The translations under genes and the position numbers were made by a program. A stretch of 39,936 nucleotides of DNA from an uncultured Cytophagales bacterium (GTDB lineage: Bacteria > Bacteroidota > Bacteroidia > Cytophagales > JAAEPT01), in assembly GCA_964350605.1 (NCBI GenBank), contig CAYGKP010000001.1:1-39936 (forward strand), written 5' to 3'. The notes beneath the pieces were generated by a model, which was not told the origin of the DNA, made no database searches, and saw only the letters and a program-made list of their open reading frames with translations. Positions 3,405 through 22,708 of this stretch are shown here, piece after piece; position 1 is the first letter of the stretch; every line of letters begins with the position of its first letter.

Positions 3405-3439
3405 TGAGGCCAGAGGGACTGCGGAGCACTTGCCATACC

Positions 3440-5115: not shown

Positions 5116-8100
5116 CTAAATGATTAAAGGCTCTTCGTAGTCGTTTTGAATCCCCCCCGAGTTCACTACGTCCACCTTGAACCGGTGGTAAATCGTGTCA
5201 CTTGAGCCATTCGTGGCAGGCAAGAAATCTCCCAGCTCGTATTCAATTGTCTCTTCATTGGACGATACTTGGTTAACCAGTGCCCACTGACCGGCCTCTG
5301 TCATCTTGTACAGGTAGTAAGTACCCGACTTGCACGTACTAGGCCAACTGAGTGTGGGCAGGATCGGGTCTGGCGTCGCGTTGGGATCACCACCATCGTA
5401 GGAAATCGGCGGCGCTGGCGGTGGCGCATCATCAACAATTCGCGTCCGAATAATTTCACTGGGGATAGATGGCACTACCTCCGGCTCCTCATTCTCATTA
5501 ACAATAAACCTCAGAGCCACCAGCCGATAGAACAATGTCTCGGCATAAGGGGGAAACTTCCCTTCTAAGTCCGAGAATACATCTGCTACCGAATCGACAG
5601 AGACAGTAGTGGCTAGCTTCATAGTTCGAACAGTTCGGGCCTCCGCTTCAGTGGTTGCTCGATACATCCGGATACTCGTCACGTTTTCTTCTGGCAAGTA
5701 ACTGCTCAACTGAAAAGCGACTCGTGGCAGTGCCTGCGCTCCACTTGATCGCGGACCAATCACTTCCAGCGTCTTCAACTTTGGCGGCGGCGGAGGCAGG
5801 GCATGCAAGAGTTTAACCGGCGCACTGACAGCGGAAGGGTTGGAAGTCTGCCCATCCGAGGCGATCTCACGCGCTCTATAGAAGTACAACTGGGAGTGCA
5901 TTGCCCCATCAAGCTTGTAATCCGTGAAACGAACGAACACCTCGCCACTTTCAGCATAGCGCCGAGCCATCGGGAATGGATTGAACTCCGAAGATTCGAT
6001 CGGCAAAAGCTGTCCACGTGAGTCCACCACCTTGGGCAGCTCGGGGGAGGTCTGTCGGCCCTGCTCAAGGAATTCGAAGAGAACCGGCTGTGTAGTCAGC
6101 GGGGTAAAAGCATTCGAAATCGCCACGAAAGCTTTAGAGATCGCCGAAGTACCAAAGCCTGGATCATTTTGCGGCAGGATATCATCGGTTAGAAGCTCAC
6201 CACTGAAAGTTGGCGACTTATCGGGCGGCGGAATGAAGTATGAGTTGGCTCCGTACGACTTGAACGCACCTGGAGTGGTGTCTCCACTACCCTGAACATC
6301 CAGGTTGGCCAAGCCACTCCAGTAGTTCGAAAGTACCGACTGATCTTCCAGAGCAATCAGATTGCCTTTTACATCCTCAGCCGTTTCTGTTTCGAACAGG
6401 CTATTCAGCAAAGCTTCCTGGCTTGTACGGTAAAAAACAAACCCATAAGGCGGACGCTCCGGCTCATTAACTTTGATATCGAAGGTGTAGGAGGACTTTC
6501 CGTATCGATCCGGACGCGTAGCATAAAGCGGCCCGATTGGTGGGTCCGGCGGAATGGGGTCAACAATCTTTTTCGCGACAAGAAGGGAGGCTGGTGATAG
6601 GTCTGAGGAAATGTTGTTGATGCTATCACGCGAACGCGCTGCCATCAAAGACACTCTTGATAGCTCACCCTCACCAGGTAGTATTTGCACGCGCTGGAAC
6701 AACCCAGGGAGCTGCTGTGGCTCAGCTTCCAGGTACAATCTGTATCCGGGGTGAAAATTGACCGATACGTCTACTCCCGTCTGAATAGGGTCCGAATCGT
6801 AGTTAGCATCGACCGCATAGATCTCCAATGGATTCTGAGAAACGATCGTTACAACAGAGAGCTCTTTGGTCTGATTGGGATCATATTGACCTGTGCTCGA
6901 GAAGCTGATCCGTGCCGTGCCTTGATACCAACTCACCCCTGTCTGAGGATGATCAGCCAGTGAGGTTCCCGAGGCATAAGCGATGTGGTATAGTCCACGA
7001 AACACCTGAACCTCCTGTAAGAGACCTTGTGAGTCTGGTTCGAAAACTGTCTCGGTGATCGGATCTACCTGCGCTGGTTCAAAAATACCGCCGATGAACC
7101 TTGTCTCTTGGTTCCCGTTCTCGTCTTCGAAAACCTCTTCGTGATTGCTTAGGTCAATTAGGTCAACGGTGTAAGCTAGTTTTTGCGGCCAATTGCTTGG
7201 CTCCAGCAGGTTCTCGACCATAAGGAAGCACTCGTCTGCTCCTGGAAAGGAATACTCTTTGCGTCCTAAGAAAGTCCTATTGCTTGATGGATCATCGGTC
7301 GCTGTTTGCTCAACGGCTTTGATTTGAATCTGAGGCTCGGTACCCGAATTGAGTTGAAGCACTGAGAATACTTCTTGACTCTCGTTGGTCGATAGGACAC
7401 CACCAAGGTACTTCCCCTCCTCGCCTACAGATATCTCGGGTATAACATCTGATGATGGGTTCGTGCTGTAGTTGCGATAGAACCCGGTGAGGAGCGTGAT
7501 ATCTCCTTCACCGTTATCAACGACTTCCTTGATTGTGCCTCGAACACTGTCAGGTGGGTCCAACCGAAAGAAGAAATCGATCTTATCGGCCCGACGGTAA
7601 GCAGACTGGTGAACGTGATTCCAGAGAAAGGTCACGCGTGTCAGCTCAGGCTCATCAAGCGGCTGATTGATCCGAGCCAGCAACTCGTCTTGTTCCGCCT
7701 GGCTGGTTAGAACCAACGGCTTCTCTTTTTGGATATACTGAACAGCAAAATTAGCTGGCGGCAGGAGAGTATTCCGTAGCGGAAAGTCCGTTAAGTCGGT
7801 TTGGGCGAGCTGGCCAACCGGAGATACTCGTTGGAAGATATTAACTCCGTAGAGCGCGTACTCATGGACTCCACTTTCGGTCTCTACATGCGTGTAGAAC
7901 TCTTCCACGGGCTGGGAAGGAAAAAGTAACGACTCAGGAATCTCGATTATCTCCGGTTCGTTGAATTCATCCAACTCGACGATTTTTTGGCTGTTGTATT
8001 CGTCGTCGAATAATAGCTCTGGCTTTCTCCACTCACTCTCACCCAATAGGCGGTACTCCAAACCCACACGTAGCGGAATACTAGCCTCACTCATGTCGAA

Positions 8101-11100
8101 CTCGGCACCAGCGAGTTCAGAAAGCACGTTGATTCTATTCCCTCTAGCTTCGTATTCAAACAACTGAATCTTCGGATCCTCGGCTTGGGAAAGGCGTATA
8201 AACCGTTGATCGGTCTCCCAACTGTAGCCCTGTGGATCCGTTAGTTCCGTTTGAGAGTCGTCAGCGTTTAGAATGAATAGCCCATAATCGACTGGTTCTA
8301 GACTCGGGCTGTATGGGAGGCGCTCATCCTCCATTGAAGTTGGAAGGCTTAACTGCACATGAGAAGTCTCAAGATTTGCAGGAAAACCAAAAAAAGTACT
8401 GCCTGGATCGGCTCCTGAAGTGTACACGACTGAATAGATGTATCGATTGCCCTCGCTACCGATCAAATTATCTGGTGCGCACAATGTGGGCGCCCAAGCG
8501 CCTCCGCCAAGTGCGGTTAGAGCCGGAGAGAATTGCTGAAGGGCTCCGTCATTCTCGATAGGTGATGAGTCTGCTGCAACCGTACCTTCCTCTTCGTCCA
8601 GTTTCCACCAACCTACCAACCCTTCCGGGTCGATCGATTCGGCGCAACGTCCATACGAGAAATGATCTAACTGCTCCTGACTGCTGAGAGATCTATTGTA
8701 TATACGTGCATGGCTTAAGCAGCCACGATACTCCCTAGAATAGCCATAATCAGAAACGCCCTGAGGCCACCCTCCTAAGGCCAGATAAGCCAAATCGTTC
8801 AATTGTGCAGTCCCCGATCCAACGGGACCTACAAATTGGGTCAACTGATCACTGATCTGGAAGCGCCAGCCCTCACCTGTGCTGGGATTAAATGCTTTTG
8901 TGACGGATATAAATAGCCACTTTGGATCCAAAAAAGAGGGGAACCGAACCTCAGTACCCTGATTACCCACAGAACCGGCATCAAAGGCTAGCGAGTACAC
9001 TACCTCGTCAGCCAGTAAATCAACCCATTTAATAACGCGTACCGCTAGACGCAGCTCAACAGCGAAGTACTGAAACGATGTAACCAGTGCAAATGCGACA
9101 TCACCTTGCTCCCTGATTGTAATTGAGGAAGGGCTTGAGGTTATTCCTTGCCGCATTTCTGGTTTGATCCATATCTCAAAAGTCTGCAGGTTGTCTTCAT
9201 ATGCAGCGTTCGCCGGAATTGACACGCGTTGATCGTCGGCTGAAAAGCACAGCGAATACTTGTTCTCATTGTCAGATATGTCTCCACAAGGTGAACCTAC
9301 CCAAGCTCCTCCTCCCAGTTCTGTCAACTGGTAATTGTAATTCACCAGGTTAGCAGGGTTTTGGATGGTTGAACTGTCGGCTGCCAAGTAACCCTGTGCT
9401 TCGTCCAGTTTCCACCAACCCACAAGTCCAGTAGTGTCAACAGTTTGGGTGCAACGACCCAGCAAGTACTGATCTCGTTGTTCTTGTTCGCTTAGCGAAC
9501 GGTCGTATATCCTGATTTGGCCGATGCACCCGAGATAGTCTTTGTTGTTATTTTGGTAGATGTCATTCCTCAAACCACCCAGATAGATCGGGTCATAATT
9601 ATTGATCCCACCATAGAAAGAGCCTGAGGGTGCTCCCGGCAAAAAGATGGCATCTTGGTCGTTAAGAATTATCCTCCAACTCGCCGGACCAGTCGCCGAA
9701 ATCGATACGAACATCCACTCAGGGTCGTCCTGAGTTTCATACTCACTTTCTAGAGTTTGATAGCTGTTCCCCAATTGCACGAAAACCGAATAGCGCACCT
9801 TATCGACCGTCTGATCATACCATTTGGTACACTGCACAATAAGTCCGGCAGGCGTTCCATTGACTGGATTGTAGGTACTCATCTTAGAGATGAGTACCTG
9901 AGAGGCATAATACAAGTCTGAGAAGTTCACTGGTGGGGCGGTGAACTGTTCATCTAGATCTGGCTTAAACCATACCTCAATTGATTTCGCGTCATAGTAC
10001 TCGTTTCGATGGCCAATGTGAGCCCGATGACCTGCTACGCTCATGCAAAGCGCATAATCCAGTTCTTCCTCTGCCAGATCGGTGTCGATGTAGCCCAAGC
10101 CCAACATTCTCGCGACGTGAAAATCTTGCGCCACCGTTCGGAGCATATCAAGCGAGCTGATCTCTAACGCATTGGCCGCCTCTGGGTCTTCTCCATCCAG
10201 GGTCACAAGTTCCTCGCCCCCGTCCAATGGATAGCTCTTCAACCCGGTAGGGTTCGTGGAGTCCGTGCTTAGTTCAAGGTATTCGATTACCCCTGATTTG
10301 AGACCCTGCGAAGTAGTCCACTTGTCTTTGTAGTTGTCTACCCGCACCCTCGCACCATCGTTGTAGTGGGGCCATCTCTTATCGACCAAAAAGCGCTCGG
10401 GATTCTCAAGGCGCTCGAACACTTCTTCGTTATCCAAGCTCAAAGCAAAAGCCCCAAGCGACTTCCACTTCTCGGCTTCATTGACGGCGTGGAAGTAGGG
10501 CTCGTATAAGACGAAATGAGCTGAATTGACACGGGCATTCTCGGCTTTCCATCGCAAGCCACCGATGTGTTCGCCAAGTAGCTCAATGGTATCTGTAATG
10601 GCGGTCGGGTAGTCTTTAGATTTTCGAAATGCAATACCCGCCTCCAAACTGGGATATGGTTCGCGGTTTACTCCCTCCATGAGAAGAGACCCATTGTCCT
10701 GAGCCTGAACGTTTAGCTTTATGCTGAACGCTCGATCGGGTCGATCCAACCAAAAGACCAATTCATCCTGGTACTGGTCGAAAAAGTTCTGGCGTGTTGT
10801 TCCACTCGCGAAAATGTTACCCCCCACTGAAGCCTCAGCTACCTTATACTCTGACCTGTTGAGGAAATAGAGGTAAATTACGTGAGTGGGGTTGGAACCA
10901 GGTCCAGCCAGTTGAAGCTGGAAGCGCCACTGCATAACGTTTCCCCTACGCAGGACTTGAGGTATCACATTAGGGTCCAAAAGGTCGACCTCCAACGTCG
11001 TTCCGGGGTAAGGGATATATGGCGTGCGATACAATCGGACAAAGTCGTTTTCACGGTTGTACCCGTAGGTAGCTTCGTACTCCTGCTCGCTAGTGAGGTT

Positions 11101-11256
11101 TCCCTTAGGGAGGTGATTCTCTCCCAGCTCGTCTTCTAGCTCCCAGCGGGTGTAGATACCGCGTGGGGTGTAGTCATTACCTAGTGAGCCTGCCGCCTGC
11201 AGTGAAAGAAACGGCGATGGGAGGCGTAGTCGAGAGAGGAGTTGAATCTTGCTCAT
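5116..11256 (-). CDS. Giant hypothetical protein (2046 aa) with two LamG (Laminin_G_3 / concanavalin-A-like lectin) modules and FN3/Ig-like-looking C-terminal segments
   Basis: An uninterrupted 6.1-kb ORF. The LamG hallmarks occur twice (aa ~403-927, nt 8476-10050): ...YLGCIGQIRIYDRSLSEQEQ...GRC...GLVGWWKLDE..G..AADSS...GGGAW. The C-terminal part has proline linkers (PPPPPKLK, DDAPPPAPP) and beta-sandwich-like strings (TLSWPSTCKSGTYYLYKMTEAGQWALV...YHRFKVDVVNSGG). There is no convincing signal peptide (MSKIQLLSRLRLPSPFLSLQAAGS has arginines inside the hydrophobic stretch). No T9SS CTD, YD/RHS repeats or Walker motifs were noticed. Confidence 0.9.
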   Translation of the reverse strand: MSKIQLLSRLRLPSPFLSLQAAGSLGNDYTPRGIYTRWELEDELGENHLPKGNLTSEQEYEATYGYNRENDFVRLYRTPYIPYPGTTLEVDLLDPNVIPQVLRRGNVMQWRFQLQLAGPGSNPTHVIYLYFLNRSEYKVAEASVGGNIFASGTTRQNFFDQYQDELVFWLDRPDRAFSIKLNVQAQDNGSLLMEGVNREPYPSLEAGIAFRKSKDYPTAITDTIELLGEHIGGLRWKAENARVNSAHFVLYEPYFHAVNEAEKWKSLGAFALSLDNEEVFERLENPERFLVDKRWPHYNDGARVRVDNYKDKWTTSQGLKSGVIEYLELSTDSTNPTGLKSYPLDGGEELVTLDGEDPEAANALEISSLDMLRTVAQDFHVARMLGLGYIDTDLAEEELDYALCMSVAGHRAHIGHRNEYYDAKSIEVWFKPDLDEQFTAPPVNFSDLYYASQVLISKMSTYNPVNGTPAGLIVQCTKWYDQTVDKVRYSVFVQLGNSYQTLESEYETQDDPEWMFVSISATGPASWRIILNDQDAIFLPGAPSGSFYGGINNYDPIYLGGLRNDIYQNNNKDYLGCIGQIRIYDRSLSEQEQRDQYLLGRCTQTVDTTGLVGWWKLDEAQGYLAADSSTIQNPANLVNYNYQLTELGGGAWVGSPCGDISDNENKYSLCFSADDQRVSIPANAAYEDNLQTFEIWIKPEMRQGITSSPSSITIREQGDVAFALVTSFQYFAVELRLAVRVIKWVDLLADEVVYSLAFDAGSVGNQGTEVRFPSFLDPKWLFISVTKAFNPSTGEGWRFQISDQLTQFVGPVGSGTAQLNDLAYLALGGWPQGVSDYGYSREYRGCLSHARIYNRSLSSQEQLDHFSYGRCAESIDPEGLVGWWKLDEEEGTVAADSSPIENDGALQQFSPALTALGGGAWAPTLCAPDNLIGSEGNRYIYSVVYTSGADPGSTFFGFPANLETSHVQLSLPTSMEDERLPYSPSLEPVDYGLFILNADDSQTELTDPQGYSWETDQRFIRLSQAEDPKIQLFEYEARGNRINVLSELAGAEFDMSEASIPLRVGLEYRLLGESEWRKPELLFDDEYNSQKIVELDEFNEPEIIEIPESLLFPSQPVEEFYTHVETESGVHEYALYGVNIFQRVSPVGQLAQTDLTDFPLRNTLLPPANFAVQYIQKEKPLVLTSQAEQDELLARINQPLDEPELTRVTFLWNHVHQSAYRRADKIDFFFRLDPPDSVRGTIKEVVDNGEGDITLLTGFYRNYSTNPSSDVIPEISVGEEGKYLGGVLSTNESQEVFSVLQLNSGTEPQIQIKAVEQTATDDPSSNRTFLGRKEYSFPGADECFLMVENLLEPSNWPQKLAYTVDLIDLSNHEEVFEDENGNQETRFIGGIFEPAQVDPITETVFEPDSQGLLQEVQVFRGLYHIAYASGTSLADHPQTGVSWYQGTARISFSSTGQYDPNQTKELSVVTIVSQNPLEIYAVDANYDSDPIQTGVDVSVNFHPGYRLYLEAEPQQLPGLFQRVQILPGEGELSRVSLMAARSRDSINNISSDLSPASLLVAKKIVDPIPPDPPIGPLYATRPDRYGKSSYTFDIKVNEPERPPYGFVFYRTSQEALLNSLFETETAEDVKGNLIALEDQSVLSNYWSGLANLDVQGSGDTTPGAFKSYGANSYFIPPPDKSPTFSGELLTDDILPQNDPGFGTSAISKAFVAISNAFTPLTTQPVLFEFLEQGRQTSPELPKVVDSRGQLLPIESSEFNPFPMARRYAESGEVFVRFTDYKLDGAMHSQLYFYRAREIASDGQTSNPSAVSAPVKLLHALPPPPPKLKTLEVIGPRSSGAQALPRVAFQLSSYLPEENVTSIRMYRATTEAEARTVRTMKLATTVSVDSVADVFSDLEGKFPPYAETLFYRLVALRFIVNENEEPEVVPSIPSEIIRTRIVDDAPPPAPPISYDGGDPNATPDPILPTLSWPSTCKSGTYYLYKMTEAGQWALVNQVSSNEETIEYELGDFLPATNGSSDTIYHRFKVDVVNSGGIQNDYEEPLII

Positions 11257-11262
11257 AACCGC

Positions 11263-14200
11263 TTAAGGAATCAAAAGGGAAACTGGGCGCGTAACAGCTG
11301 AGCCCTTGGCCACGAACTGGTAGCCGTTGTAGATCATCTCTTGGAAGTGCAGCTCGATTTCATCGAACGGCAAGACATTGTAGGTGGTGGTGATAAAGAC
11401 CTGTGTGCAATCTTTCGAAGGGATAATGACAGGCGTGAATCCAGGCCCAAGATTAGGCTGCCCTGGTAGCGTGATACGCAGGACTTGAGAGAAGATTTGT
11501 TCTCTGGCTCTGGGGTCGCATAAAGGCTCTGGGCTTCGCACCAACATACCATAGGTAAATGATCCGCTTCCCGGAATTCGGAAGATGTTCACTTCGGTCG
11601 TTGTTGGCACTTCCAAGGCATCAAGGCCCAATCCTGCCCGCATTATGCGGTCAAATGTCATTGCATACTCTTGTCGCAAAGGGTCCTCAGGTGCCAGACT
11701 ATCTGCAAGAATCTGTGCCAGCACAGTTTGGTCCTTCTGAATGTGCTCTAAGTTGTAGATCGCCTCTCTCCCCTCTCCAAGGTCTATGCTTCCTATGTGC
11801 TCAGCGAACGAGCCGTAGCGTGACGTTTGAACCGCATACTTGTGGAGCTCATGCTCGACTCCCTCGAATTGCGATACCAGGTGAACCGTGTAGAGCTTCT
11901 CGCGTCTCAAGTCCGGTGGAGAGAGGAAGAAGTAATACCCCTTCTGAAGGTCGAACTGGAACTTTGTACAGTTAGCTCCATCTGGCAGGGAGTTAACAGC
12001 CATGTTGTGGATCACTTGCGTATCCAGAGAGTAGCTGGCTTCTTCCTCACGAATCCAACCATCCGATTCGCTGGTTAAGGAGAGCGACTGATTGGTTTCG
12101 GTTTCCTTAACGATCGCGTCAAGCTTATTGGCCAGTGCAGGGCTTCCCAGGTTGGCAGGCCAATCACCGAACAGATTGTACGTCCCGGGTTGTTTGAAGA
12201 ATACTCTAAGGTCATTGTGACCTTGCTTATAGTAGAGCGGTTTGGCACCAATGAGATTGCCGTCGACCGAGGGATAGGATCGCCCGAAATCCAGGTAGGG
12301 CTTCAATGAATAGAGCCCCTCGTTTTCCAAGTTTTCCAATTCGACTTGCTGAGCCGCCTCGACTGCATCGAAATAGTGCCGTATGGGGCCTCCGGTTTTA
12401 AAACCGAAGACATACGACTGATTGCTGGTATTTCCCTCGACTACATCACGCCCTTCAATTCGTATTGCGTAGGCACCATTCGGTCTCCAAACTGGTTGTA
12501 AAACATTCTGTAAACCGAGTCCGAAATAGGCCAGTTGTTCCTCACGAGTCTCATTGATCTCAACCTGCTGTTCATTGAAACGTCTGGTGGCTTCCGTTTC
12601 CCAACACAGCTCAATTAGAGACACTTCTCGATACTCCGCACCTCCACCAAGCACACTAAGTACTGCTTCCTGAGTCATATTGTCCAAGCCGCCATCAAAG
12701 GTCAAAGTTCGCAAACACGAAGGCTGCAGTCCACATAGCTCATACTGCCAGGCACCTCCATTCAATGCGGTCAGCGCAGGAGCAAAATCTTCAAGTATTC
12801 CATGATTGGCATAGGGCGAACTATCGTGTGCAACTGTGCCTTCCAATTCATCAAGTTTCCACCAACCGATTAATCCTGCCCGTTCGATATCCTCGGCGCA
12901 GCGGCCTCTCCTAAAGTGAGCCAGCTGCTGTTCTATCGAGAAAGCTCGATTGTAAAGTCTGGCTTGCGAAAGACACCCATCGAAGTCTTTGTTGGGTAAC
13001 CATGTGACGAAATCCGGAGAGTTACCCAAATGGATATGTGCCACGTCGACAAGGTTTGATGTGGCAAAGGGTCCAAGCGGATATACCCCAATGACGGGTT
13101 GATCCTGTATCTGGAAGTTCCACTTACTGGTGAAGTCAGTATCCAACTCATCGTTGAACCCAACACCTGAGGCCGAAATGAACAACCATTCCGGATCCTT
13201 GTCAGCTGGGTAACGCAGATCAGGTGGAGGGCCACCTGGAGGTAGCGCTGTACCTGCCTCTACGTAAAATGAGTAGACAATTTCATTGGTCGAACTGTCC
13301 AGCCATTTGATCGTCTTAACAAGCAGACGCAACCAGTTGCCTTGATAAGTCGTGGAAGAGAAAATCGTGAAGACCACCTCACCACGGTCAATCAAGGCAG
13401 TATAATCCGGTGAGCTTGTCACTCCGGTATCCAGAACTGGCTTGGCCCAAATCTCGAAGGCTCGGATGTTATTCTTATAGGGCGTGATCGCCGGGATTGA
13501 GACGCGGTGATCTGGGTCGCTCATGCACAAAGCACCGCCCCTAGCCGGAGGCTCCCCTGGAGGCAAACATATCTCCGTTGCCCAAGCTCCGCCTCCCAAA
13601 GCAGTCAGTGCTGGTGCGAATTGTTGAAGGACTCCGTTATTATCAAGCGGTGAAGAGTCCGCAGCGACTGTCCCCTCCTGCTCGTTGAGCTTCCACCAGC
13701 CAATCAGACCATTGGCTATAATCGTCTGAGCGCACCTCCCCAATTCATATTGAGCCCTCTGCTCAGACTCGAATAGCTCCCGATTGTACAGACGAACTTG
13801 CCCAATACAGCCCAGATATTCTTTGTTATTGTTGGCGAAAATGTCTGAGCGAAGGCTTCCAATAAAGAGCGGCTGATCATTCTCAACACCCAAGTATAAT
13901 CCACCAGCTGGACCAGAGGGGAATGAGTAGGCGGTCTGGCTGTTGATGATAATTCGCCAGCTTCCGTTGAAAGCTGCGGAAACGAAAACCCACTCGGGGT
14001 CCTCAAGTTGTTCGAACTCAACCTCACGATTCGCATAGTGGCTACCCATCTGTACGAATACTGCATACTTGACTTTATCGGTCGGTTGATCTAACCATTT
14101 AGTCACAGAAATGACTATACCATTTGGTAATTGGGTCGGGCCCGATGCGGACATTTTCGAGACGACAATTTGTGAGGCTTCGTATAGGTCGAAGTAATTG

Positions 14201-17200
14201 GATGGAGTCGCAGTGAACTGAGGATCAACCTCAGGCTTAAACCATGCTTCGACGGTTTTTACATCCAGGTACTCCGCGATATGTCCAACTTCAACCTTCT
14301 GACCTGAAGCATTGAAACACAGGGAAGTTCCTTCTTCTATCAACGGCAAGCCTTCCTGCCCGCCACACGTTTCTTCTACCCAGGCACCGCCGCCAATTTG
14401 TGTGCGGCCACTCGTGTAACCGGTCAGTACGCCATCTGAGTTTGTCCATGCCAGCCCCGAATTGGTCGCCTGGGTTCCCTGTAACTCGTCCAGTTTCCAC
14501 CAGAGACGAAGGTTCGTAGTATTGGCATTCACTGCACAACGTCCCCCTTCATACTGATCATCAATCTCTTGGGCGGAGAGAACAAAATCCTGGTAGTACT
14601 GGATGTGATCGACATACCCCTCAAAGTCTCCCTCTCCGAGGATGATTGGGCCGTCGTTGTATACATCTCCGGGTGTTCCTGTCGACTCTGACACCCACGT
14701 TTCAACTGAAGGCTGACCGTTTACAGTCAAATAGTAATCGGCTAGTTGAGTACCTGTTCGCTGAACAGTGATCATGTGCCAACCTTCAGCCTCCGCAACA
14801 ACAAACCTCTTGACGATTCGGATGTGTCCGTTCCAACGGTTGTTGTAGTGAAGCTCGACAAACAAGCTATATCCAGATGCCTGAGTCGGAGCCAGAACGG
14901 TCCGAATAGTAATCCCATGACCATCGGAGGCCATCTTCTTGAATAACACTTCCAAGTGGTCGTTGATATCTTGACCTACCTGTCCATTGACTAGCGTCTC
15001 ATCAATCGGTGTCTGCTTCAACCATGCAACGATCGAAAAAGAGCCGCCGAATGTGAACCCACCATGGTTGGGGCTTGCAACTTGTACAGACTCCCCAACT
15101 TGAATGTGTAGTGCAGGCGAACTCTCCTCTTCGGTTTGTAGACCGCAAGGGTCGACCCTGTATGTCAAACGATAAGCCGTCACCGGTTCGGGAAACCGAA
15201 TCGAAACTGTCATCGGCTTTTCCAACTCGTCCTCTTGGAGTGCTACAAGTGCCTCCGTTAAGTTGGTGCCAGGGGCATACTCAGACTCCTCTTCGACTAC
15301 TTGAATGGCCTTACGGCTTGAGGCAGATGGAATGTCGATTTTGATCCAGGCCTTCCGATCAAACTTCCATTCGCCCTCGCGATAGCGTCGGAAGCCGTTG
15401 GATTGGCCTTGCCAGTTCAAGCACTCCCAGTCGACCAACGGCTGGGTACAAAACATCAAGCTCGCATTGAGGCCATAGTCCTCAACGATATTGGTCTCAT
15501 CAGGTCCGGTACCCTGACTTAAGAAGGCAAAGGGGTTTCTTGCAAGAATTCGCAGATGTGTCTTTTGTCTTGGCTGCTCATGTGCCTGCCAAGCACCGAT
15601 ATGCAATAAGCTTGCTGGGACAGAATCTAGGAAGGCTTTGATCGGCAATGCCTCGTATGGGTCATATGGCACCCAAATATCCCCGACAGGGTCGCGGGTA
15701 AGAATTTCAACTTTGTCGAGGTGAAAGCGATGTTGAACTTGGTCGGAATGCCCTCTACGAGGAGAAATCTTTACCACATTATCGGTCGGAACGAACCTGC
15801 CTGTCATTCTTGACAGTACTGGATCTTTGCCCTTCGGCTTTAGACTATAATTAAATTGGATATCGACGAAGCTATCCTGCGGAATGATCGTCTCTTCGAG
15901 CAAGTCAAACCAGGATTCCTCAAGTGCACTTCCCAGATAAGCGATGGGAAACTCCTCTAGCGTTGTCATGTTCAACGCCTTCACTGCATTGCTCGGCTCA
16001 AGAATCTGGAATGGCTCAAGTTGGCGTCGACGGTCGAACACCCATCGAAGCGAAACTCGGATACCTTTCTTCTTCCGCTTAAACGGAATCTTGATCTTTA
16101 CCTCAATGTACCCTTCGATAATGAAAGGTCTGGGTGCTTCCGCTCCCAAATAGGCCCCCACTCCAAATCCGAATCTGAATTTCCAGATTCCGATTTCTAG
16201 CCCCCCGGCGATTAGAACGTGACCACCAGCTTGAACGGGTTCGGTGCTAATGCGCACGCCCATATCCAGGTAAGCATATAGTCGAAAGCGAATCGGGCCA
16301 AAACGTTTATCAAGATTGAAACTTGCACCTGCGCCCAAAGCCACCCCTCGAGCTGAAAGCTGCAGGTATGCATTCAAATTGAATACTCGGAGTATTCTGG
16401 CACGGATTCGCTTGGAGGGCGGGCTGGCCTCACCAATGTTGAGGTACCACCCCCCCGGATTCTGAAAGAAGAATCCGAACTCCATGTTGGCGGAAATATC
16501 GGCGATCACGCCGCTCGACTGTGGTAATCGAGCCTGAACACCAGCACCACCGGTAATTGACTCTGGGCTAACAGCCAAAAAGGCACTGAAAGGCGGGTCC
16601 TCTCGATCATCCAATCCGACCTGTCGACGGAGAATACCCGCTTGACCTTGGAGCAGTAAGGTCTCGGGAGCGGTTAGTAGTAGGAATACTTTGCTTGAGA
16701 AAATTCGAGGGTCTCCTTTTGTGGCAATTGCTGTGCCCGCTCCTCCTACAAAGCCTGGCTCTTTTGAGAACTTGTCGACGGTGATGCCCTCTTTCGGCGG
16801 GGCTTTGTAATACTGCCACCAACTTGCTGAGTCCGCTAAGCCAATGGCCGATTTATCAGCGATGTACCCACTGCCGACTAGGCCTCGAAAGCCATAAATT
16901 CCTAGCCCCGTCGGACCTAGGGGAATTGGAGTTGGTAAATTGATTTTTGCATCGACTAGAAAAGAAGGATCATCTGGGACGTACGAAATGTCACCTTCAA
17001 ACTTGAGCTTCAAGCGAGGAAAGCTAACACCGACGGCTCCTCGATACTCACTAACCGAGCCTCCTTGCTCCTGGCCAAGTAGGGCCAAATACCCCTCAAT
17101 AATCGCAAGAGCTTGCTCTTTAGAGGCCGTGCCAGGGATAATTAGGCGTATCTCAAGACGTTGAATGCGAAGGAATGAGTGGAAAGCCTTTCCGGCACCT

Positions 17201-19056
17201 GCATCGGTATCAATTGTGAAAAAGAACTGGATGCCATCCCCTCGGACGTCTAATCCCGCTGGCTGAAGATTCAAGCTTCCATCAAAACCGAAATAGGCGT
17301 ACTGTCGAAGTTGGCCTTCATGATCTTGTTCATAGGTCCCGAGTGTCAACGCGCTGACCTGTATTTTGGCAGGGCCCAGTTTCAAGTCGAACGTGCGCGG
17401 CAAAAGCTGTACGCCGCCATCGAACTCAATCCTGCCATTCGAGTAGATGCGTAGTTTGGAGATCGGAATCTTACCAGGGAGCAACTTATCGGCAAGTCCA
17501 CCAGGGACAGGAGCTGTGATCTCCAGCTCCCCAGCTACTTCAAGAGCATAGACCTCGCCGAGCTTTTCCAGAGAAAGACTACGAAGAGTAAGCTTGAAGA
17601 CTTCGTTCTCTTCCGAGGGGAAAGAAAGCACAAGCCCTTCTGGCTCAATAGCTGCGAACGTAAAATCCCCGTTTTCGAAAAACTGAATGGTAACCTCCAA
17701 CTCCGCGGGATTCCCTTCTGAGTCTTTAACATTGAAGTTCTCCGGAAAATTGAGCGTGGCTCTGGCGGAAGAGCGCACCAGACTACCCTGACGAAACTCC
17801 ACCTCAGCTTCTTTCAACTCCAGACCGAAGCCACCTAAGGTCGCATCGTAGGAGTCATATTCATCCTCACCTACTACCCGAGTTTCCAGTCCGATCGTCC
17901 CACTGAAGCCACCTGAGCCGATGATGAGATTACGCCCTTTGAGAATGGCTTGCTCCGTAGGGTTCCCATTCTGCGTTAGGATAGGCGGAAACCCAACTTC
18001 GATCTCCTCGATGAAGACTCCTCGGAAGTCAGCCGGATAACCTGCATCCTGAATGGGTTGAATATTGGTAGTTCGGGAAAGGTCTAGCCAAACATTGTCG
18101 ACTTGAAAAGTGAAGCCCGAGTTACCGATTTGAACTGTAGGGCCAGAAACTCCCTGGTCAGTATCGATACCCGTTGTGACCTGAGTTGACTGATCAATGC
18201 CGAAGCTGCCACGTGTGTCAAAAGTGAATTGAGCGGGCTCTGTTCTCAGAACATACTTAGACGGCTCGGCGTAAGGTTCGCCGCTTGGCTGAAGCGGCAG
18301 TAAAAAGCTTCGAGGAATGGCAACCTCCAAACCAAGTGAAGTGCCCGCCCTTACTCTCGGAACTAGCATCTCCTGCAAACGGCTCAAAATTGGCAGTCCT
18401 CCTCCGTCGTAAAGGCGATTGATGGCATCAAGTCCGCTCGACAGATCGGAAGCAGGCAGCACGTAGATCGTAAAGAGTATCTCCCGAACAGACGGCAGCG
18501 ACCCACTCGCGTCGATCTGTGCTATTAGGTCATCTATCTGGTCAGAAAGCTCAGTTGCTGACGGCATGGATACCGAGCTACCCCCGTATTCTGCATTGAT
18601 TTTATTGACTAGGCTTTGAACATCCTCAGAGAGCTCAATCTCTAAAACCGCGTTGGTCAGCAAGCGCTCGTCTAGCGGATCGGTTACTGTGAGCAGGAGG
18701 TCGAAAAAGGACTGCGGCGAGCCATCGAAGCGCGAAAATTCGAAGTCGTCGAAGTAGCGGAGGATCTCCCAATCAAACTGAAGGGTGAGGTCGAATTCGG
18801 TGGTGTTGGGAAGGGTGCCGGGATTAATGGAGAATTCCAGATCGAGGCCGGGAACCGTGAAGCCAATGTTCTGGAAGGCGATGAGTTGGACGTAAAAGGA
18901 ACGCGTTGACCCGGCGGTGTTGACGAATTGAATCTCCTTAACAAAGAGGTTCGGGATCAGCGCATCAAGCCCTCCGTCGATGAAGCTCAGGGCCTCGGGC
19001 AAATCGTCTGCAGAAAGCAGCGAGGTGACAGGTAGGTAGTTGTGGGTGGAGGGCAT
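11263..19056 (-). CDS. Giant hypothetical protein (2597 aa): ~1300-aa beta-rich N-terminal region of unknown family, three LamG modules, ~490-aa C-terminal region
   Basis: An uninterrupted 7.8-kb ORF. The LamG array covers aa ~1320-2110 (nt 12727-15099), with repeated ...R(L/I)YNR..S..EQ...GRCA...GLIGWWKL(D/N)E..G..A.DSS...GGGAW...C. The N-terminus MPSTHNYLPVTSLLSADDLP has no signal peptide. The start ATG (19054-19056) overlaps the upstream stop as TAATG. No catalytic or NTPase motif was recognised. Confidence 0.9.
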   Translation of the reverse strand: MPSTHNYLPVTSLLSADDLPEALSFIDGGLDALIPNLFVKEIQFVNTAGSTRSFYVQLIAFQNIGFTVPGLDLEFSINPGTLPNTTEFDLTLQFDWEILRYFDDFEFSRFDGSPQSFFDLLLTVTDPLDERLLTNAVLEIELSEDVQSLVNKINAEYGGSSVSMPSATELSDQIDDLIAQIDASGSLPSVREILFTIYVLPASDLSSGLDAINRLYDGGGLPILSRLQEMLVPRVRAGTSLGLEVAIPRSFLLPLQPSGEPYAEPSKYVLRTEPAQFTFDTRGSFGIDQSTQVTTGIDTDQGVSGPTVQIGNSGFTFQVDNVWLDLSRTTNIQPIQDAGYPADFRGVFIEEIEVGFPPILTQNGNPTEQAILKGRNLIIGSGGFSGTIGLETRVVGEDEYDSYDATLGGFGLELKEAEVEFRQGSLVRSSARATLNFPENFNVKDSEGNPAELEVTIQFFENGDFTFAAIEPEGLVLSFPSEENEVFKLTLRSLSLEKLGEVYALEVAGELEITAPVPGGLADKLLPGKIPISKLRIYSNGRIEFDGGVQLLPRTFDLKLGPAKIQVSALTLGTYEQDHEGQLRQYAYFGFDGSLNLQPAGLDVRGDGIQFFFTIDTDAGAGKAFHSFLRIQRLEIRLIIPGTASKEQALAIIEGYLALLGQEQGGSVSEYRGAVGVSFPRLKLKFEGDISYVPDDPSFLVDAKINLPTPIPLGPTGLGIYGFRGLVGSGYIADKSAIGLADSASWWQYYKAPPKEGITVDKFSKEPGFVGGAGTAIATKGDPRIFSSKVFLLLTAPETLLLQGQAGILRRQVGLDDREDPPFSAFLAVSPESITGGAGVQARLPQSSGVIADISANMEFGFFFQNPGGWYLNIGEASPPSKRIRARILRVFNLNAYLQLSARGVALGAGASFNLDKRFGPIRFRLYAYLDMGVRISTEPVQAGGHVLIAGGLEIGIWKFRFGFGVGAYLGAEAPRPFIIEGYIEVKIKIPFKRKKKGIRVSLRWVFDRRRQLEPFQILEPSNAVKALNMTTLEEFPIAYLGSALEESWFDLLEETIIPQDSFVDIQFNYSLKPKGKDPVLSRMTGRFVPTDNVVKISPRRGHSDQVQHRFHLDKVEILTRDPVGDIWVPYDPYEALPIKAFLDSVPASLLHIGAWQAHEQPRQKTHLRILARNPFAFLSQGTGPDETNIVEDYGLNASLMFCTQPLVDWECLNWQGQSNGFRRYREGEWKFDRKAWIKIDIPSASSRKAIQVVEEESEYAPGTNLTEALVALQEDELEKPMTVSIRFPEPVTAYRLTYRVDPCGLQTEEESSPALHIQVGESVQVASPNHGGFTFGGSFSIVAWLKQTPIDETLVNGQVGQDINDHLEVLFKKMASDGHGITIRTVLAPTQASGYSLFVELHYNNRWNGHIRIVKRFVVAEAEGWHMITVQRTGTQLADYYLTVNGQPSVETWVSESTGTPGDVYNDGPIILGEGDFEGYVDHIQYYQDFVLSAQEIDDQYEGGRCAVNANTTNLRLWWKLDELQGTQATNSGLAWTNSDGVLTGYTSGRTQIGGGAWVEETCGGQEGLPLIEEGTSLCFNASGQKVEVGHIAEYLDVKTVEAWFKPEVDPQFTATPSNYFDLYEASQIVVSKMSASGPTQLPNGIVISVTKWLDQPTDKVKYAVFVQMGSHYANREVEFEQLEDPEWVFVSAAFNGSWRIIINSQTAYSFPSGPAGGLYLGVENDQPLFIGSLRSDIFANNNKEYLGCIGQVRLYNRELFESEQRAQYELGRCAQTIIANGLIGWWKLNEQEGTVAADSSPLDNNGVLQQFAPALTALGGGAWATEICLPPGEPPARGGALCMSDPDHRVSIPAITPYKNNIRAFEIWAKPVLDTGVTSSPDYTALIDRGEVVFTIFSSTTYQGNWLRLLVKTIKWLDSSTNEIVYSFYVEAGTALPPGGPPPDLRYPADKDPEWLFISASGVGFNDELDTDFTSKWNFQIQDQPVIGVYPLGPFATSNLVDVAHIHLGNSPDFVTWLPNKDFDGCLSQARLYNRAFSIEQQLAHFRRGRCAEDIERAGLIGWWKLDELEGTVAHDSSPYANHGILEDFAPALTALNGGAWQYELCGLQPSCLRTLTFDGGLDNMTQEAVLSVLGGGAEYREVSLIELCWETEATRRFNEQQVEINETREEQLAYFGLGLQNVLQPVWRPNGAYAIRIEGRDVVEGNTSNQSYVFGFKTGGPIRHYFDAVEAAQQVELENLENEGLYSLKPYLDFGRSYPSVDGNLIGAKPLYYKQGHNDLRVFFKQPGTYNLFGDWPANLGSPALANKLDAIVKETETNQSLSLTSESDGWIREEEASYSLDTQVIHNMAVNSLPDGANCTKFQFDLQKGYYFFLSPPDLRREKLYTVHLVSQFEGVEHELHKYAVQTSRYGSFAEHIGSIDLGEGREAIYNLEHIQKDQTVLAQILADSLAPEDPLRQEYAMTFDRIMRAGLGLDALEVPTTTEVNIFRIPGSGSFTYGMLVRSPEPLCDPRAREQIFSQVLRITLPGQPNLGPGFTPVIIPSKDCTQVFITTTYNVLPFDEIELHFQEMIYNGYQFVAKGSAVTRPVSLLIP

Positions 19057-19544
19057 TACTTCACAGTTCTTAGTGAGTCAACGTAATCATGCATTGAGAC
19101 CATTAGATTCTTGGACATAATGACTATTATACCTCCACTTTCTTTCTCATATATGTTTATATACCTGTAGTCACTTTCTAAATATATTTTTGGACTATAC
19201 CTTTTCTCAGATAGTATCCTGTACCTGAAGTGTGAGATATCACAACTATCTCTTATAAGGAAAGAGTTAATATATCTTCCTTCCGCATTTAGGTACTTCC
19301 TTTCTGTTATTTCTGAAAAACAAGGAGTAACAAATTGAAAATATATATCGAAATGTCCATCCCACTTATCAGGGACCCAGCTTTCGTCTCCCTTTTCGTA
19401 ATTTCTAGATACTTCAACCACAAATACAGTATCTGTGCTAGCCAACCTTTTATTATATACTAATCCATTGCTAGAGTTTTCTAGGTAAAAAACCTTAACC
19501 TCATGACAGGAGGACAGGATAAGTAGTATCGCAAAGTATTTCAC
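19056..19544 (-). CDS. AT-rich small lipoprotein (162 aa); candidate immunity or partner protein for the upstream metallopeptidase module
   Basis: Track ORF. MKYFAILLILSSCHE looks like a short signal peptide plus lipobox LSSC. Sample 60-nt lines here give about 35-37% G+C by hand count. It starts 5 nt after the 1052-aa gene ends. Its stop shares one nt with the giant gene ATG. Confidence 0.75.
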   Translation of the reverse strand: MKYFAILLILSSCHEVKVFYLENSSNGLVYNKRLASTDTVFVVEVSRNYEKGDESWVPDKWDGHFDIYFQFVTPCFSEITERKYLNAEGRYINSFLIRDSCDISHFRYRILSEKRYSPKIYLESDYRYINIYEKESGGIIVIMSKNLMVSMHDYVDSLRTVK

Positions 19545-19549
19545 TCGAA

Positions 19550-22500
19550 CTAATCAGTATCTGTAACCGGGTATCGGTATGCAATCAAATTATCAAACAT
19601 CTGTTTGAACTGAATTGGAGAAAACCTCCGGTTCTCAACTGCAGTTAGCGGAGGAGAGGGGTACATCATATTCTCGTACTGATCAACAAAATCAGTATTA
19701 CCAACTGTCAAATTCTTATTGTACTCAGAATGAGGCTTAATATCGGATATGTTCTCAGAAGGCGGAACTGAGGGCGGACTAGATAAGTAAAAATTCTGAT
19801 TCAGCTCATAGCTATCCTCAGTATCCCGCTTGTTTAAATAGTACAACCTCTGATTACTTAGTGGTTGGCCAAATACCTCGTCAAATTGTTGACTAGAAGT
19901 GCCAGATCTCCTACCCATTTGAGTGTGCAGAGTATGCTTTAATCCAGCCACATGTCCGAGTTCGTGATAAACAGTATACCGAGCAATATTAGTATTCAAT
20001 AGCGGATGTGAGGTGGCAATTCCACCAATTGAATGTAAGTTGATTAGTGCTGGTCCAAGGTCTTGATCTTTGATAAGATCATACCCCTCCTTGGCAAGAT
20101 AGAAGGCAGGAAATGGCCCTCCATTTGTTGAGAACGGTATGCTAAGTTGTATAAGATTGTCTACTGGTGCTTTCAGTATCGAAAGGCCTCTGGTCCCAAT
20201 CAACTCCTCCCTTTCTGCGGGATAATCATAGCTACCATCTCTCGACTTCTTAGCTAGCAGATCGTTTACCTTCTCAGTTGGATGTCTCTGTCCAATATTA
20301 TGAACCCATGGGGAACGGCCCTCCACGATATTAAGATCATCCTTTAAGAAAGTCTTTCCTTGAGATTCTATGTAAGTCTTTGCATTATTTATCTTTTCCA
20401 AATCGATATCATCATCATTAGCAAAATTCTCGACGAACAAAACGGACAATGAAAATGTGCCAGCCAGTAGGTCATGAGCAATTTCTTCAAAAGTATCTAC
20501 CACTTCTATTTGATCAATCAAATATCTTATCCTGTAATTTTTTCCCTCATAAGTAGCAGTAGCTAGGTCTGGCAAATATTCAAATGTGCTTTCAGTATCT
20601 AATGGTTCTTTGCATTGCTCTTCCAAGAAATCCACTGGATCAAACTCTATACTTGTATAGTCCTTCATGGGTGCATCTTCGTTTGGAAGACGATTATAAA
20701 TGTATGTAGGCTTGTGAACATATACCTTGCCAATTCGGACGAAAATAACTCTCTCTTCATTCGGCTGACCTTCATTCTGGATATAAGGCCAAATCCCAAT
20801 GTATTCATTCGAGCTCTCAGGATCTACAAGCTTCCATCCTACTCCATGAACTGAACGCGCTCTTGGATTGTAATAGGCTACGTGCCAATTGGCTGTCAAA
20901 GAGGATATTTCAACAGCATTATCTGCAATCCATTGAGAGTCAATCTCCAGGCTAACAATAGAAACTTGCCTGGTAAGTATACCGTCCTGGTCAAGTTGTG
21001 AGAACACAAACAAGTGCTGTAGGCCCAATAAGCTTGGCACTTGATGAGGCGAAAGAACCAAATCGCTACTTTCCAGATTCCGGAGAAAATTATTCTGATC
21101 TGAAAATGCCGGAAGAGTAAGATTGTACTCAGGTCCAACTAAAGTCGACCACTTAAAGCCCTCTGTGGGTGATAGCAAGTAATGTATCTTGTCCTCCTCT
21201 ACGACAAGAACAGTAGAAACAAAACCAGAAAAACCCAACTCTTCCATTCCATCAACAAATCGTTGATAGTGCAGATTTGCTGTCTGAAACCTAGGCTTAG
21301 AACTCTCAGAGAAGTCCCATGGAATCACATCGCTAATTACCTCTGGAAGTACGAATGTGTTGTCGAGGTAGTAGTTAGCATTAATCACAGGAGAACTCTT
21401 AGGCGGCGCGACCTTCTCCGGGTCGATCCGCTGGATGTAAGACAACTTCACATAACTGGCAATCGAGTTACTGCCTGCAGCCGCAGTGGCCAGTTCGATC
21501 TCATCGGTCCAACCACTCGTAAACGTTGGCTCGATGTACCTGGCCTTGTGACGCGGCACCTCCGGGAAGCGCTTGTAGGGGCTCGCTCCATCCAGATAGA
21601 CCAAGGGCTTGGTGTTGTCGGCCTCTGGTAAAGAGAGGCGTATGTGCGTCTTGCTATTTGCAACCCCCGAACTCAACTCCGAACCCTCAATGATGTGAAT
21701 CGGCCAGTCATTGCTTAGGTAGGCTCGCCCCGAAGGGGCCGTGTTCCCATCGAATGATAGATTGACGTTGACGTTGTAGCCTGCGTAGCTACTATAGTTA
21801 CTGTAGTAGTTGAGGCTATAGCTGTTCTCATTCCGAATGTCCAGATACACCCGGCCGGGGTGAGCGAACTTGGTCAACACGTCGGTGTAGAGGTCTTGAT
21901 CAGTCAGGGTCGAAACCGTGGAACCCTGCAAAACTCGAACACCACTACGTGCGTGAAGGCCATAGAATGCTGCGGGGTCGATGTAGTGAATCACCTTCTC
22001 CCTCGCCGCACGGTTCTCCAGTGCGTCAGTTGCGTCTTGAGGCGTAGCGATCGTTGGGGCGGCCGTAACGGTAACCAGGCCATCAGAAGCCCGCAGCTCC
22101 CCAAGCGTAGGATTGCTCCCATATGCCTCCAGAACGATTTCAAAACCAATCTCGCTGCTGGCCGCAAACTCACCCAAAGTCTGGCCTGCTCGAACACGCG
22201 TCGGCTTGAACGCTGTTAGATGGTTAAAAAAAAGTGCGTCGATCTTCTCAGAATCAAGCTTTTGATCGTCACCAGTTGCCGATGCTGTGAAATGCAGCCC
22301 CAGTGTTTCTTCGGTTGGATCAACCTTAGCGACACCCAAAGCGTCTGCATAAGCTGCCTGGTTCTCGTGTAACTGTGCAGCCAAGTCATTCGCTGTTGTC
22401 AGCACGATCGCCCCTGAGCCTTGGACTAAACTACTCTTCGCAACACCCCTGTAGACAAAGTACTTGACCCGAAAAGGCAGGTGAGGATTGTGATTAAATG

Positions 22501-22708
22501 GTTTGATAACAAGGTTAAGCAGAGTCGAGGACTGCTCTTGAGCGTACAGCAATCCTCCTACACACGCGATCACTGGTGCGCCTTGACCCGATGATACTGT
22601 ATGCTTGGACGATAAATGAAATTCAGTACTTGAAGCGGGCCCATAGGCCTGGCCAGTGCTTTGCACATCCAGTAAGCTGGGGTCGGTAAAAAAGTAGGGC
22701 TTGGCCAT
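19550..22708 (-). CDS. Chimeric 1052-aa protein: GC-rich N-terminal ~430 aa of unknown family + AT-rich C-terminal ~620 aa ending in a metzincin-type zinc metallopeptidase motif
   Basis: Track ORF. HELGHVAGLKH (HExxHxxGxxH) is encoded at 19934-19966 (verified by reverse complement). Composition changes near 21350-21450. Sample lines give about 58-63% G+C at 21.5-22.1 kb and about 33-43% at 20.4-21.3 kb. No signal peptide (MAKPYFFTDPSLLDVQ). Confidence 0.85.
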   Translation of the reverse strand: MAKPYFFTDPSLLDVQSTGQAYGPASSTEFHLSSKHTVSSGQGAPVIACVGGLLYAQEQSSTLLNLVIKPFNHNPHLPFRVKYFVYRGVAKSSLVQGSGAIVLTTANDLAAQLHENQAAYADALGVAKVDPTEETLGLHFTASATGDDQKLDSEKIDALFFNHLTAFKPTRVRAGQTLGEFAASSEIGFEIVLEAYGSNPTLGELRASDGLVTVTAAPTIATPQDATDALENRAAREKVIHYIDPAAFYGLHARSGVRVLQGSTVSTLTDQDLYTDVLTKFAHPGRVYLDIRNENSYSLNYYSNYSSYAGYNVNVNLSFDGNTAPSGRAYLSNDWPIHIIEGSELSSGVANSKTHIRLSLPEADNTKPLVYLDGASPYKRFPEVPRHKARYIEPTFTSGWTDEIELATAAAGSNSIASYVKLSYIQRIDPEKVAPPKSSPVINANYYLDNTFVLPEVISDVIPWDFSESSKPRFQTANLHYQRFVDGMEELGFSGFVSTVLVVEEDKIHYLLSPTEGFKWSTLVGPEYNLTLPAFSDQNNFLRNLESSDLVLSPHQVPSLLGLQHLFVFSQLDQDGILTRQVSIVSLEIDSQWIADNAVEISSLTANWHVAYYNPRARSVHGVGWKLVDPESSNEYIGIWPYIQNEGQPNEERVIFVRIGKVYVHKPTYIYNRLPNEDAPMKDYTSIEFDPVDFLEEQCKEPLDTESTFEYLPDLATATYEGKNYRIRYLIDQIEVVDTFEEIAHDLLAGTFSLSVLFVENFANDDDIDLEKINNAKTYIESQGKTFLKDDLNIVEGRSPWVHNIGQRHPTEKVNDLLAKKSRDGSYDYPAEREELIGTRGLSILKAPVDNLIQLSIPFSTNGGPFPAFYLAKEGYDLIKDQDLGPALINLHSIGGIATSHPLLNTNIARYTVYHELGHVAGLKHTLHTQMGRRSGTSSQQFDEVFGQPLSNQRLYYLNKRDTEDSYELNQNFYLSSPPSVPPSENISDIKPHSEYNKNLTVGNTDFVDQYENMMYPSPPLTAVENRRFSPIQFKQMFDNLIAYRYPVTDTD

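Follow-up and report, generated by a model that had tools for sequence, protein, structure and literature searches.

The 39,936-nt stretch of contig CAYGKP010000001.1 from an uncultured Cytophagales bacterium (hereafter the window) carries on its minus strand an operon that opens with a 1052-aa gene, here called c0, and continues with a 162-aa gene and the genes of two giant proteins. We found that the G+C (guanine plus cytosine) content falls abruptly within c0 and rises again at the start of the first giant gene. This composition step is confirmed. The low-G+C block between the two edges is very probably a foreign, exchangeable module seated on a conserved domain of c0, which we call the head, and the full explanation, that an effector module was swapped into a resident c0 gene, is probable too, with somewhat more room for doubt. 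For a toxin and immunity function of the module and the 162-aa gene, as judged from their sequences, we see an even chance.

The composition break

The c0 gene (19550..22708, minus strand, from the open reading frame (ORF) list) joins a conserved head to a variable payload. G+C was profiled in 200-nt sliding steps, and the edges of the trough were placed by a two-segment likelihood change-point analysis with 2-lnL (log-likelihood) support intervals. The trough in the sliding profile has a G+C content of 0.32-0.45, with 0.50-0.60 on both sides. The upstream step lies at nt 21401, which is codon 436 of c0 (support 21338-21408, codons 434-457), where G+C changes from 0.535 to 0.409. The downstream step lies at 19054/19055 (support 19046-19101), with G+C of 0.340 versus 0.532 across it, and coincides with the ATG of the first giant gene (giant 1), which the stop of the 162-aa gene overlaps as TAATG. 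The support intervals thus cover 71 nt upstream and 56 nt downstream. Between the steps, the block of 19056-21400 (2.35 kb) comprises the last 616 codons of c0 and the 162-aa gene and has a G+C content of 0.395, the lowest of all 2345-nt segments of the 39.9 kb; non-overlapping segments have a mean of 0.532, a standard deviation (sd) of 0.038 and a minimum of 0.446.

The step is largest at third codon positions, where G+C (GC3) is 0.587 in the c0 head, 0.375 in the C-terminal part of c0 and 0.340 in the 162-aa gene, compared with 0.53 in the giants and 0.70 in the housekeeping genes of the window. G+C at the first and second positions (GC1 and GC2) drops too, and synonymous codon usage splits in the same way. 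The log-likelihood ratio of the step in c0 is 24.3 nats; it does not exceed 2.8 in seven other long genes of the window or 5.5 in 200 codon shuffles of c0. The sequence-only reading, made earlier from hand counts, had described such a step inside the 1052-aa gene, and the change points at 21401 and 19054/19055 bear out its position, direction and extent, as do the sliding G+C profile and the codon usage. Its absolute counts at the flanks were a few points too high: 200-nt intervals give 0.52-0.56 at 18800-19099, not about 0.60.

Among the 53 loci compared, the intragenic drop of the window (−0.112, C-terminal part versus the average of head and giant) is the largest and lies about 3 sd from the family (mean −0.024, sd 0.030). 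The G+C of the block (0.41 in its c0 part, 0.34 in the 162-aa gene) falls among the values seen for c0 C-termini and intervening genes of low-GC family members. At other loci, the entire c0 and the intervening gene lie below the giant gene in G+C (0.31 versus 0.45 in locus L016, 0.43 versus 0.53 in L011, and likewise in L050, L055 and L058), and we therefore regard the front of the operon as a recurrent site of exchange.

The head of c0 and its family

The resident part of c0 is the conserved head of aa 1-436 (21401..22708, minus strand), delimited by the change point and by homology, with a G+C content of 0.535 like that of the remaining operon. No Pfam, NCBIfam, PADLOC, PHROG or PDB sequence match was obtained for c0. 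Among 5.8 billion proteins searched, we obtained 11 homologues with 26-33% identity, each aligned by BLASTP solely to query aa 1 to about 303-493, and a scan of one genome per species returned 69 loci with a c0 head (24-35% identity). The latter are mostly from Bacteroidota (Flavobacteriales, Cytophagales, Chitinophagales and Bacteroidales), and a few are from Kapaibacteriota, Ignavibacteria, Acidobacteriota, Chloroflexia and Alphaproteobacteria. All of these approximately 80 homologues (11 metagenomic and 69 genomic) match query aa 1 to about 450-500 only. In an alignment of 61 sequences, the identity between the query and the family is about 0.2 until aa 460-500 and about 0.09 thereafter, while the other members stay alike beyond that point. 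Invariant residues of the head include F7, Y83, R87, D244, D290, R292 and E294. Carriers of c0 and the giants fall into dozens of genera, some of them cultivable, such as Adhaeribacter, Aquimarina, Chryseobacterium, Winogradskyella, Mesonia and Cryomorpha.

What follows the head differs from member to member. The domains adjoining it are Peptidase_C15-like in 10 members, PAF-AH in five and a chlorophyllase-type alpha/beta-hydrolase in four, and further members have Reprolysin-like, M23, GH19-like, Amidase_2, S8 or M43-like domains. The last 250 aa of 59 family proteins form 16 clusters, and the C-terminus of the c0 in the window is unique. This is in agreement with the earlier expectation that homologues keep the N-terminal part alone (here about 436-500 residues, in about 80 homologues) and that the same head is fused elsewhere to different C-termini. 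The accompanying view of the N-terminal part as a trafficking region was not supported: in Pfam and NCBIfam, the head has no match to any known family of trafficking domains, repeats or secretion signals, and its sequence has no signal peptide. An AlphaFold2 (AF2) model of the head, built from 10 sequences, is of low confidence (predicted local distance difference test (pLDDT) score of 56) and has no PDB fold match at E ≤0.001.

In long variants of c0 (2500-2960 aa; L024, L036, L066, L037, L038 and L051), the head begins about 1400-1750 residues into the protein. An S8 subtilase domain precedes the head in L024, L036 and L066, the three long variants included in the S8 scan (L037, L038 and L051 were left out), and in the 1814-aa homologue P0002. 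Because the long variants place it deep inside the protein, the head is better described as a core domain than as an N-terminal signal.

The junction and the orphan modules of Cryomorpha ignava

Just downstream of the break, aa 437 to about 505 of c0 (21194..21400, minus strand) are already low in G+C and still family-like in the conservation profile, with the motif YLDNTF, a near-invariant D449 and an invariant F452. We call this segment the junction, or homology handle. Residues 425-525 match locus L007 at E 3.5e-4 and also, weakly, the modules of Cryomorpha ignava.

In the C. ignava locus (L003; JAAGVY010000052.1, 325-18826), c0 modules of full length and modules that have no head stand in tandem. 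The full-length genes encode 1035 and 1086 aa; the head-less modules, of 657, 663, 575 and 135 aa, share 55-63% identity with the C-terminal region encoded by the 1086-aa gene. Every module is followed by a hydrophobic ORF of 107-136 aa, and four of these ORFs are mutually related (24-40% identity). The 657- and 663-aa modules start at position 425 of the family hidden Markov model (HMM) numbered by the query, where their LMNIRQKNPE pairs with LSYIQRIDPE of the query (aa 422-431). This start is 11 codons upstream of the composition break in the window, which argues that the family has a fixed exchange junction and that the window is a mosaic formed on it. L003 is an array of orphan cassettes of textbook form, in a species that can be cultivated; orphan modules of this kind are absent from the window.

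At the other end of the block, giant 1 is 32-33% identical to its counterparts in L004 and L006 from residue 3 onward, and homology for a downstream crossover is therefore available right at its start.

The payload and the candidate partner gene

The remainder of c0, aa ~506-1052 (19553..21193, minus strand), is an orphan payload, which in protein searches matches only itself. For the whole local module (aa 437-1052), a word-indexed search of the 5.8 billion proteins, HMMER over 1.84 billion representatives and comparison with 73 related loci likewise returned only the query. The sole functional clue is HELGHVAGLKH at aa 915-925 (19934..19966, minus strand), a metzincin-type motif that follows the zinc-binding consensus HExxHxxGxxH. 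The Pfam matches around this motif all fall short of their cut-offs (Reprolysin_5, E 0.006 and 17.2 bits with a cut-off of 27; M43, E 0.096 and 13 bits with a cut-off of 23; also M57 and M10), and in the PDB there are no more than non-significant, motif-level matches to ADAM33 and archaemetzincin. In a single pairwise comparison, the payload matched the M43-like end of homologue P0011 at E 6e-4. A candidate Met-turn, NMMYP (aa 1013-1017; 19658-19672, minus strand), lies 88 residues past the third His.

The 162-aa gene (19056..19544, minus strand; G+C 0.34) is the candidate cognate partner of the payload. Its product starts M/VKYFAILLILSSC, with a GTG start codon, a 12-residue leader, a hydrophobic core and the N-terminal lipobox L-S-S-C (consensus [LVI][ASTVI][GAS]C), which make it a candidate lipoprotein. 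The chance of 162 stop-free codons at this composition is about 1e-6, and the ORF is therefore certainly coding.

At related loci, the gene between c0 and the giant gene co-varies with the C-terminal type of c0, and for this reason a cognate-partner role of this gene is likely, as far as sequence comparison can indicate. The gene c4, of about 130 aa, occurs in every one of the 11 loci of a single C-terminal cluster (L015, L019, L020, L026, L027, L040, L042, L044, L046, L048 and L049) and in no other cluster. The c4 protein has no signal peptide, is always encoded immediately before giant 1 in these loci, often after a WG-repeat lipoprotein of about 600 aa, and may act as a chaperone, as an adaptor or in immunity. 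Signal peptides or lipoboxes are present in the intervening families c18, c23, c26 and c6 (WG-repeat). For the 162-aa protein, an immunity role is plausible.

The giant proteins and associated genes

Giant 1 (c1; 11263..19056, minus strand) is a putatively all-beta, DUF6603-like protein of 2597 aa with one LamG domain, and giant 2 (c3; 5116..11256, minus strand) has 2046 aa and two LamG-like regions. Giant 1 comes after c0 at 55 related loci and is in turn followed by giant 2 at all 11 loci whose flank extends far enough. LamG domains are the only Pfam domains in either giant. PDB sequence and profile searches with giant 1 found nothing. The AF2 model of giant 1 aa 227-1212 shows an uninterrupted meander of long antiparallel strands (pLDDT 68.5; predicted template modelling (pTM) score 0.44). 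Its fold matches (LptD, ApoB-100, SlpA, ushers and teneurin in the PDB; tail-fibre-like proteins in BFVD) have template modelling (TM) scores of 0.05-0.15, and no assignment was drawn from them.

The homologue P0018 of giant 1 scores 34.1 bits for DUF6603 (PF20248), above the cut-off of 27. Giant 1 of the window has no DUF6603 match at E ≤0.01, and in tblastn it matches DUF6603 proteins annotated by PGAP at E 4e-23. Relatives annotated as DUF6603 occur on Mycetohabitans megaplasmids (22.6% identity over 85% of the query), behind a phospholipase-D-like gene. One of them, of 2496 aa, is encoded on a Mycetohabitans endofungorum plasmid (L079; NZ_CP132742.1, 14185-27206) amid insertion sequence (IS) elements and toxin-antitoxin (TA) modules, preceded by a phospholipase-D-like gene and by the gene of a 1322-aa hypothetical protein, which is not detectably related to the c0 head. 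By sequence similarity, the giant family appears to reach Betaproteobacteria with a different upstream partner. In the literature searched, we found no publications on DUF6603, PF20248 or PF27118 and no published description of an operon of the head and two giants or of a comparable system of Flavobacteria, for which a single, unrelated preprint on type VI secretion came up.

Genes for a histidine kinase (HisKA_3) and a response regulator (LuxR/GerE) lie upstream of c0 in at least 10 loci (L004, L014, L016, L021, L034, L035, L055, L058, L064 and L065), and about half of these also have conserved small ORFs, one of about 106 aa and one of about 212 aa. This recurring pair suggests that the expression of the c0 operon is regulated. 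In L004, L021, L064 and L065, a lipoprotein of about 155 aa is encoded directly upstream of c0.

PADLOC found no match to a defence system, and the only PHROG match overlaps the LamG domains. A phage origin was rejected: giant 1 was absent from phage records, and a head relative was present in one of 2.9 million viral contigs.

Interpretation and rival explanations

We propose that nt 19055-21400 would be an effector module of an exchangeable kind, which took the place of the 3' part of the resident gene. That gene is built on a head of about 436 residues that would always stand alongside the two giant all-beta proteins. The incoming DNA would have been acquired horizontally from a homologous locus in an organism with lower G+C; Bacteroidota genomes of 30-40% G+C contain most of the family. 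It would have brought the distal part of the head's conserved region (aa 437 to about 505), a payload of about 550 residues ending in a metzincin-type zinc site, and the 162-aa lipoprotein-like gene. The upstream crossover would lie in the conserved junction IQRIDPEKVAPP (aa 425-436), and the exchange would end downstream at the start codon of giant 1. As to function, the head may dock the payload to a delivery or encapsulation structure made of the giants, the payload would be a secreted effector with putative protease activity, and the 162-aa protein may be a cognate protector located in the envelope, that is, an immunity protein. A delivery role of the head and the giants is put forward as a hypothesis. 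The most far-reaching version of this proposal, in which the head, giant 1 and giant 2 constitute an undescribed effector-delivery or encapsulation machine whose payloads are exchanged at about aa 425-436, with orphan cassettes like those of contact-dependent growth inhibition (CDI), and in which the window is a recent swap caught by its composition, is tentative, and we rate it somewhat below an even chance.

The sequence-only reading had taken the block for a horizontally acquired toxin and immunity pair. That it is a unit with a separate history is upheld by the step, by the homology limited to the head and by the orphan modules of C. ignava. Neither a donor nor a homologue of the module was found, and for the toxin and immunity roles the evidence consists of the HExxHxxGxxH motif with its sub-threshold metallopeptidase matches and of the lipobox.

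Several findings weigh against the proposed swap of an effector and its partner. No donor or sister cassette of the block was found in the searched collections, nor was a close orthologous locus, the best relative being 33% identical. A search around the block for flanking repeats, for recombinase or mobile-element genes and for structured RNAs also found none. The family departs from textbook polymorphic toxins in that its C-terminal types recur across distant taxa and phyla, and in that some members have an S8 or Amidase_2 domain N-terminal to the head. The core proteins of the operon have no signal peptide and no known secretion domain. The metallopeptidase assignment of the payload is drawn from one motif and from scores below threshold. 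For a lipoprotein, the 162-aa protein has an unusually short leader (its Cys is residue 13), and the protein has no homologue at the 73 related loci and no Pfam, NCBIfam, PADLOC or PHROG match, and is a singleton in exact-sequence clustering. Finally, c0 and the giant gene leave no space for another gene between them at 7 of 53 loci, and C15-like C-termini, the most frequent type, have no constant partner gene; for these two reasons, immunity is not universal in the family.

Three other explanations of the break have to be considered. As the source is a metagenome assembly, a chimera could have joined the DNA of two organisms inside c0. However, two independently assembled contigs from different samples and runs reproduce the region with 99.996% (L001) and 99.985% (L002) identity; L002 covers 18816-25581 and thus both junctions, over which the two assemblies agree at ≥99.98%. 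In addition, the reading frame and the family homology run on across the upstream junction, and the downstream junction is the precise TAATG overlap of stop and start. We therefore excluded an assembly artefact, to which we give next to no probability. These near-identical contigs in the collections represent the same strain only. A second possibility is that nothing was transferred and that the resident C-terminal part and the small gene drifted towards AT in place, through relaxed selection, AT-biased mutation or an arms race. This would agree with the failure to find a donor or homologue, and variable and intervening genes are indeed somewhat lower in G+C across the family (mean difference −0.024). 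Yet both edges are steps within tens of nucleotides, one of them inside a segment that is still conserved, and the drop in the window (−0.112) is the largest of the 53 loci, about 3 sd from the mean. GC1 and GC2 shift besides GC3, and the C. ignava orphan modules, which start from the same residue, show that physical exchange takes place at the junction. Divergence in situ is thus improbable.

The remaining alternative accepts an exchange and differs in what was exchanged: the C-terminus may be a specificity cassette, a tip that binds a target or receptor or degrades the envelope and is carried by a large surface structure which the giants build, with the small gene encoding the assembly chaperone of the tip. 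Phage tail-fibre and tfa modules are exchanged in this manner and have the same layout of a head, a variable tail and a co-varying small gene. The LamG-type, adhesion-like domains of the giants would suit such a role, as would the c4 partner, which has no signal peptide, and the loci that have no partner. Against this, the variable parts of the family are enzymes (peptidases, lipase-like proteins and cell-wall hydrolases) and not binding domains, the local payload has a HExxHxxGxxH site, the partners here and at several other loci are membrane proteins or start with a putative lipoprotein or signal leader, and next to nothing of the system occurs in phage records or viral contigs. We consider a specificity cassette unlikely, if slightly less so than divergence in situ, and favour the swap of an effector module.

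Comparison with known systems

In polymorphic toxin systems, recombination with standalone cassettes generates the diversity of the C-terminal toxins (Zhang et al. 2012, PMC3482391). The c0 family likewise shares its N-terminal region and differs in its C-terminal domain, standalone C-terminal cassettes occur in the relative C. ignava, and the candidate downstream partner in the window is the 162-aa lipobox ORF within the low-G+C block. In contrast to those systems, c0 has no detected TPS/FHA, RHS, PAAR/VgrG, LXG/WXG, MafB-N, TANFOR or PVC-metallopeptidase domain and no signal peptide. The cross-phylum C-terminal types, the enzymes that sometimes stand N-terminal to the head and the non-universal partner also set the family apart from textbook cases.

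The CdiA-CT/CdiI modules of CDI have orphan cassettes at a fixed junction. As in CDI, the c0 family combines a conserved upstream part with a variable C-terminal module at a fixed junction, followed by a small, putatively cognate gene, and has promoter-less, head-less orphan modules that start from the same junction (C. ignava) and would be used to replace the module by recombination in the conserved junction. Unlike CDI, no TPS domain, FHA or filamentous repeats, VENN motif or CdiB partner was found in the operon with Pfam and NCBIfam. The head here is only about 436 aa long and without a signal peptide, the constant partners are two giants encoded as cytoplasmic proteins, and the C-terminal types are fewer and conserved across phyla.

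Rhs/YD-repeat toxins and the hypervariable region of TcC in Tc toxins combine a conserved core with an exchangeable C-terminal effector, often with a composition break. A likeness to the present system may lie in the very large beta-sheet proteins, since giant 1 is modelled as a long antiparallel meander and teneurin YD shells are among its weak fold matches. However, no RHS/YD repeats and no SpvB, TcA, TcB or TcdB domains were detected, and the variable protein and the giants are separate genes; with the TM-scores of giant 1 as low as given above for barrels, belts and YD shells alike, no structural assignment is justified. The likeness to the DUF6603 giants runs through the homologue P0018 and the Mycetohabitans relatives, the giant of the window being itself below the Pfam threshold.

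Antibacterial effectors of the T6SS (type VI secretion system) type are accompanied by periplasmic lipoprotein immunity proteins. The c0 family resembles them in its M23, amidase, GH19-like, lipase-like alpha/beta-hydrolase and metallopeptidase domains and in its lipoprotein or secreted partner genes; it differs from them in that no PAAR, VgrG, Hcp, MIX or T6SS genes were found in the window or in the related loci inspected. TANFOR-domain polymorphic toxins are described from the same phylum, Bacteroidetes (PMC7073777). There was no TANFOR match in the NCBIfam and Pfam scans, in which the presence of a TANFOR model was not checked, and the neighbourhood here consists of two giants. By analogy, the logic of the c0 family would be that of a polymorphic toxin system, closest to CDI and Rhs orphan modules, on an uncharacterised chassis.

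The exchange of toxin and immunity cassettes is already known. What differs here is the setting, a head and two giants without assigned function or structure. The mosaic in the window and the orphan modules of C. ignava both define the exchange junction. The hydrolase repertoire of the family points to an interbacterial or environmental effector role, and the locus gives concrete access to a system that may be a new one for protein delivery and would also yield new pairs of effectors and partners.

Other features of the operon and its surroundings

The operon tail (3009..5111, minus strand; G+C 0.45-0.47, below that of the giants) contains ORFs of 401, 175 and 131 aa, none of which has a homologue among the 73 related loci. 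The 401-aa ORF has a possible HExxH site (HETWH), and the 175- and 131-aa ORFs have lipobox-like leaders. The tail may be a second variable set of effectors and partners.

GC3 is about 0.53 across the giant-gene operon (5116-22708) versus about 0.70 in the neighbouring housekeeping genes (24265-39936). In its composition, the entire operon seems unusual for this genome, which would be an older layer on which the swap of the cassette is superimposed. Immediately beyond the downstream end of the operon, a restriction-modification enzyme of the MmeI type (with MmeI_N, helicase spacer and methyltransferase domains; 1-2421, minus strand) runs off the start of the window, and a HerA-like ATPase is encoded at 24265-25833 on the other side; with these two as its flanks, the operon is placed among accessory or defence-type genes. 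Upstream of c0, an AT-rich non-coding stretch of about 760 nt (22709-23465) is just preceded by a GC-rich hairpin, GAGGCCCGCTCATTGAGCGGGCCTC (~23415-23439), located after a CBM9 gene. This region and its hairpin are likely the terminator and the promoter or regulatory region of the operon.

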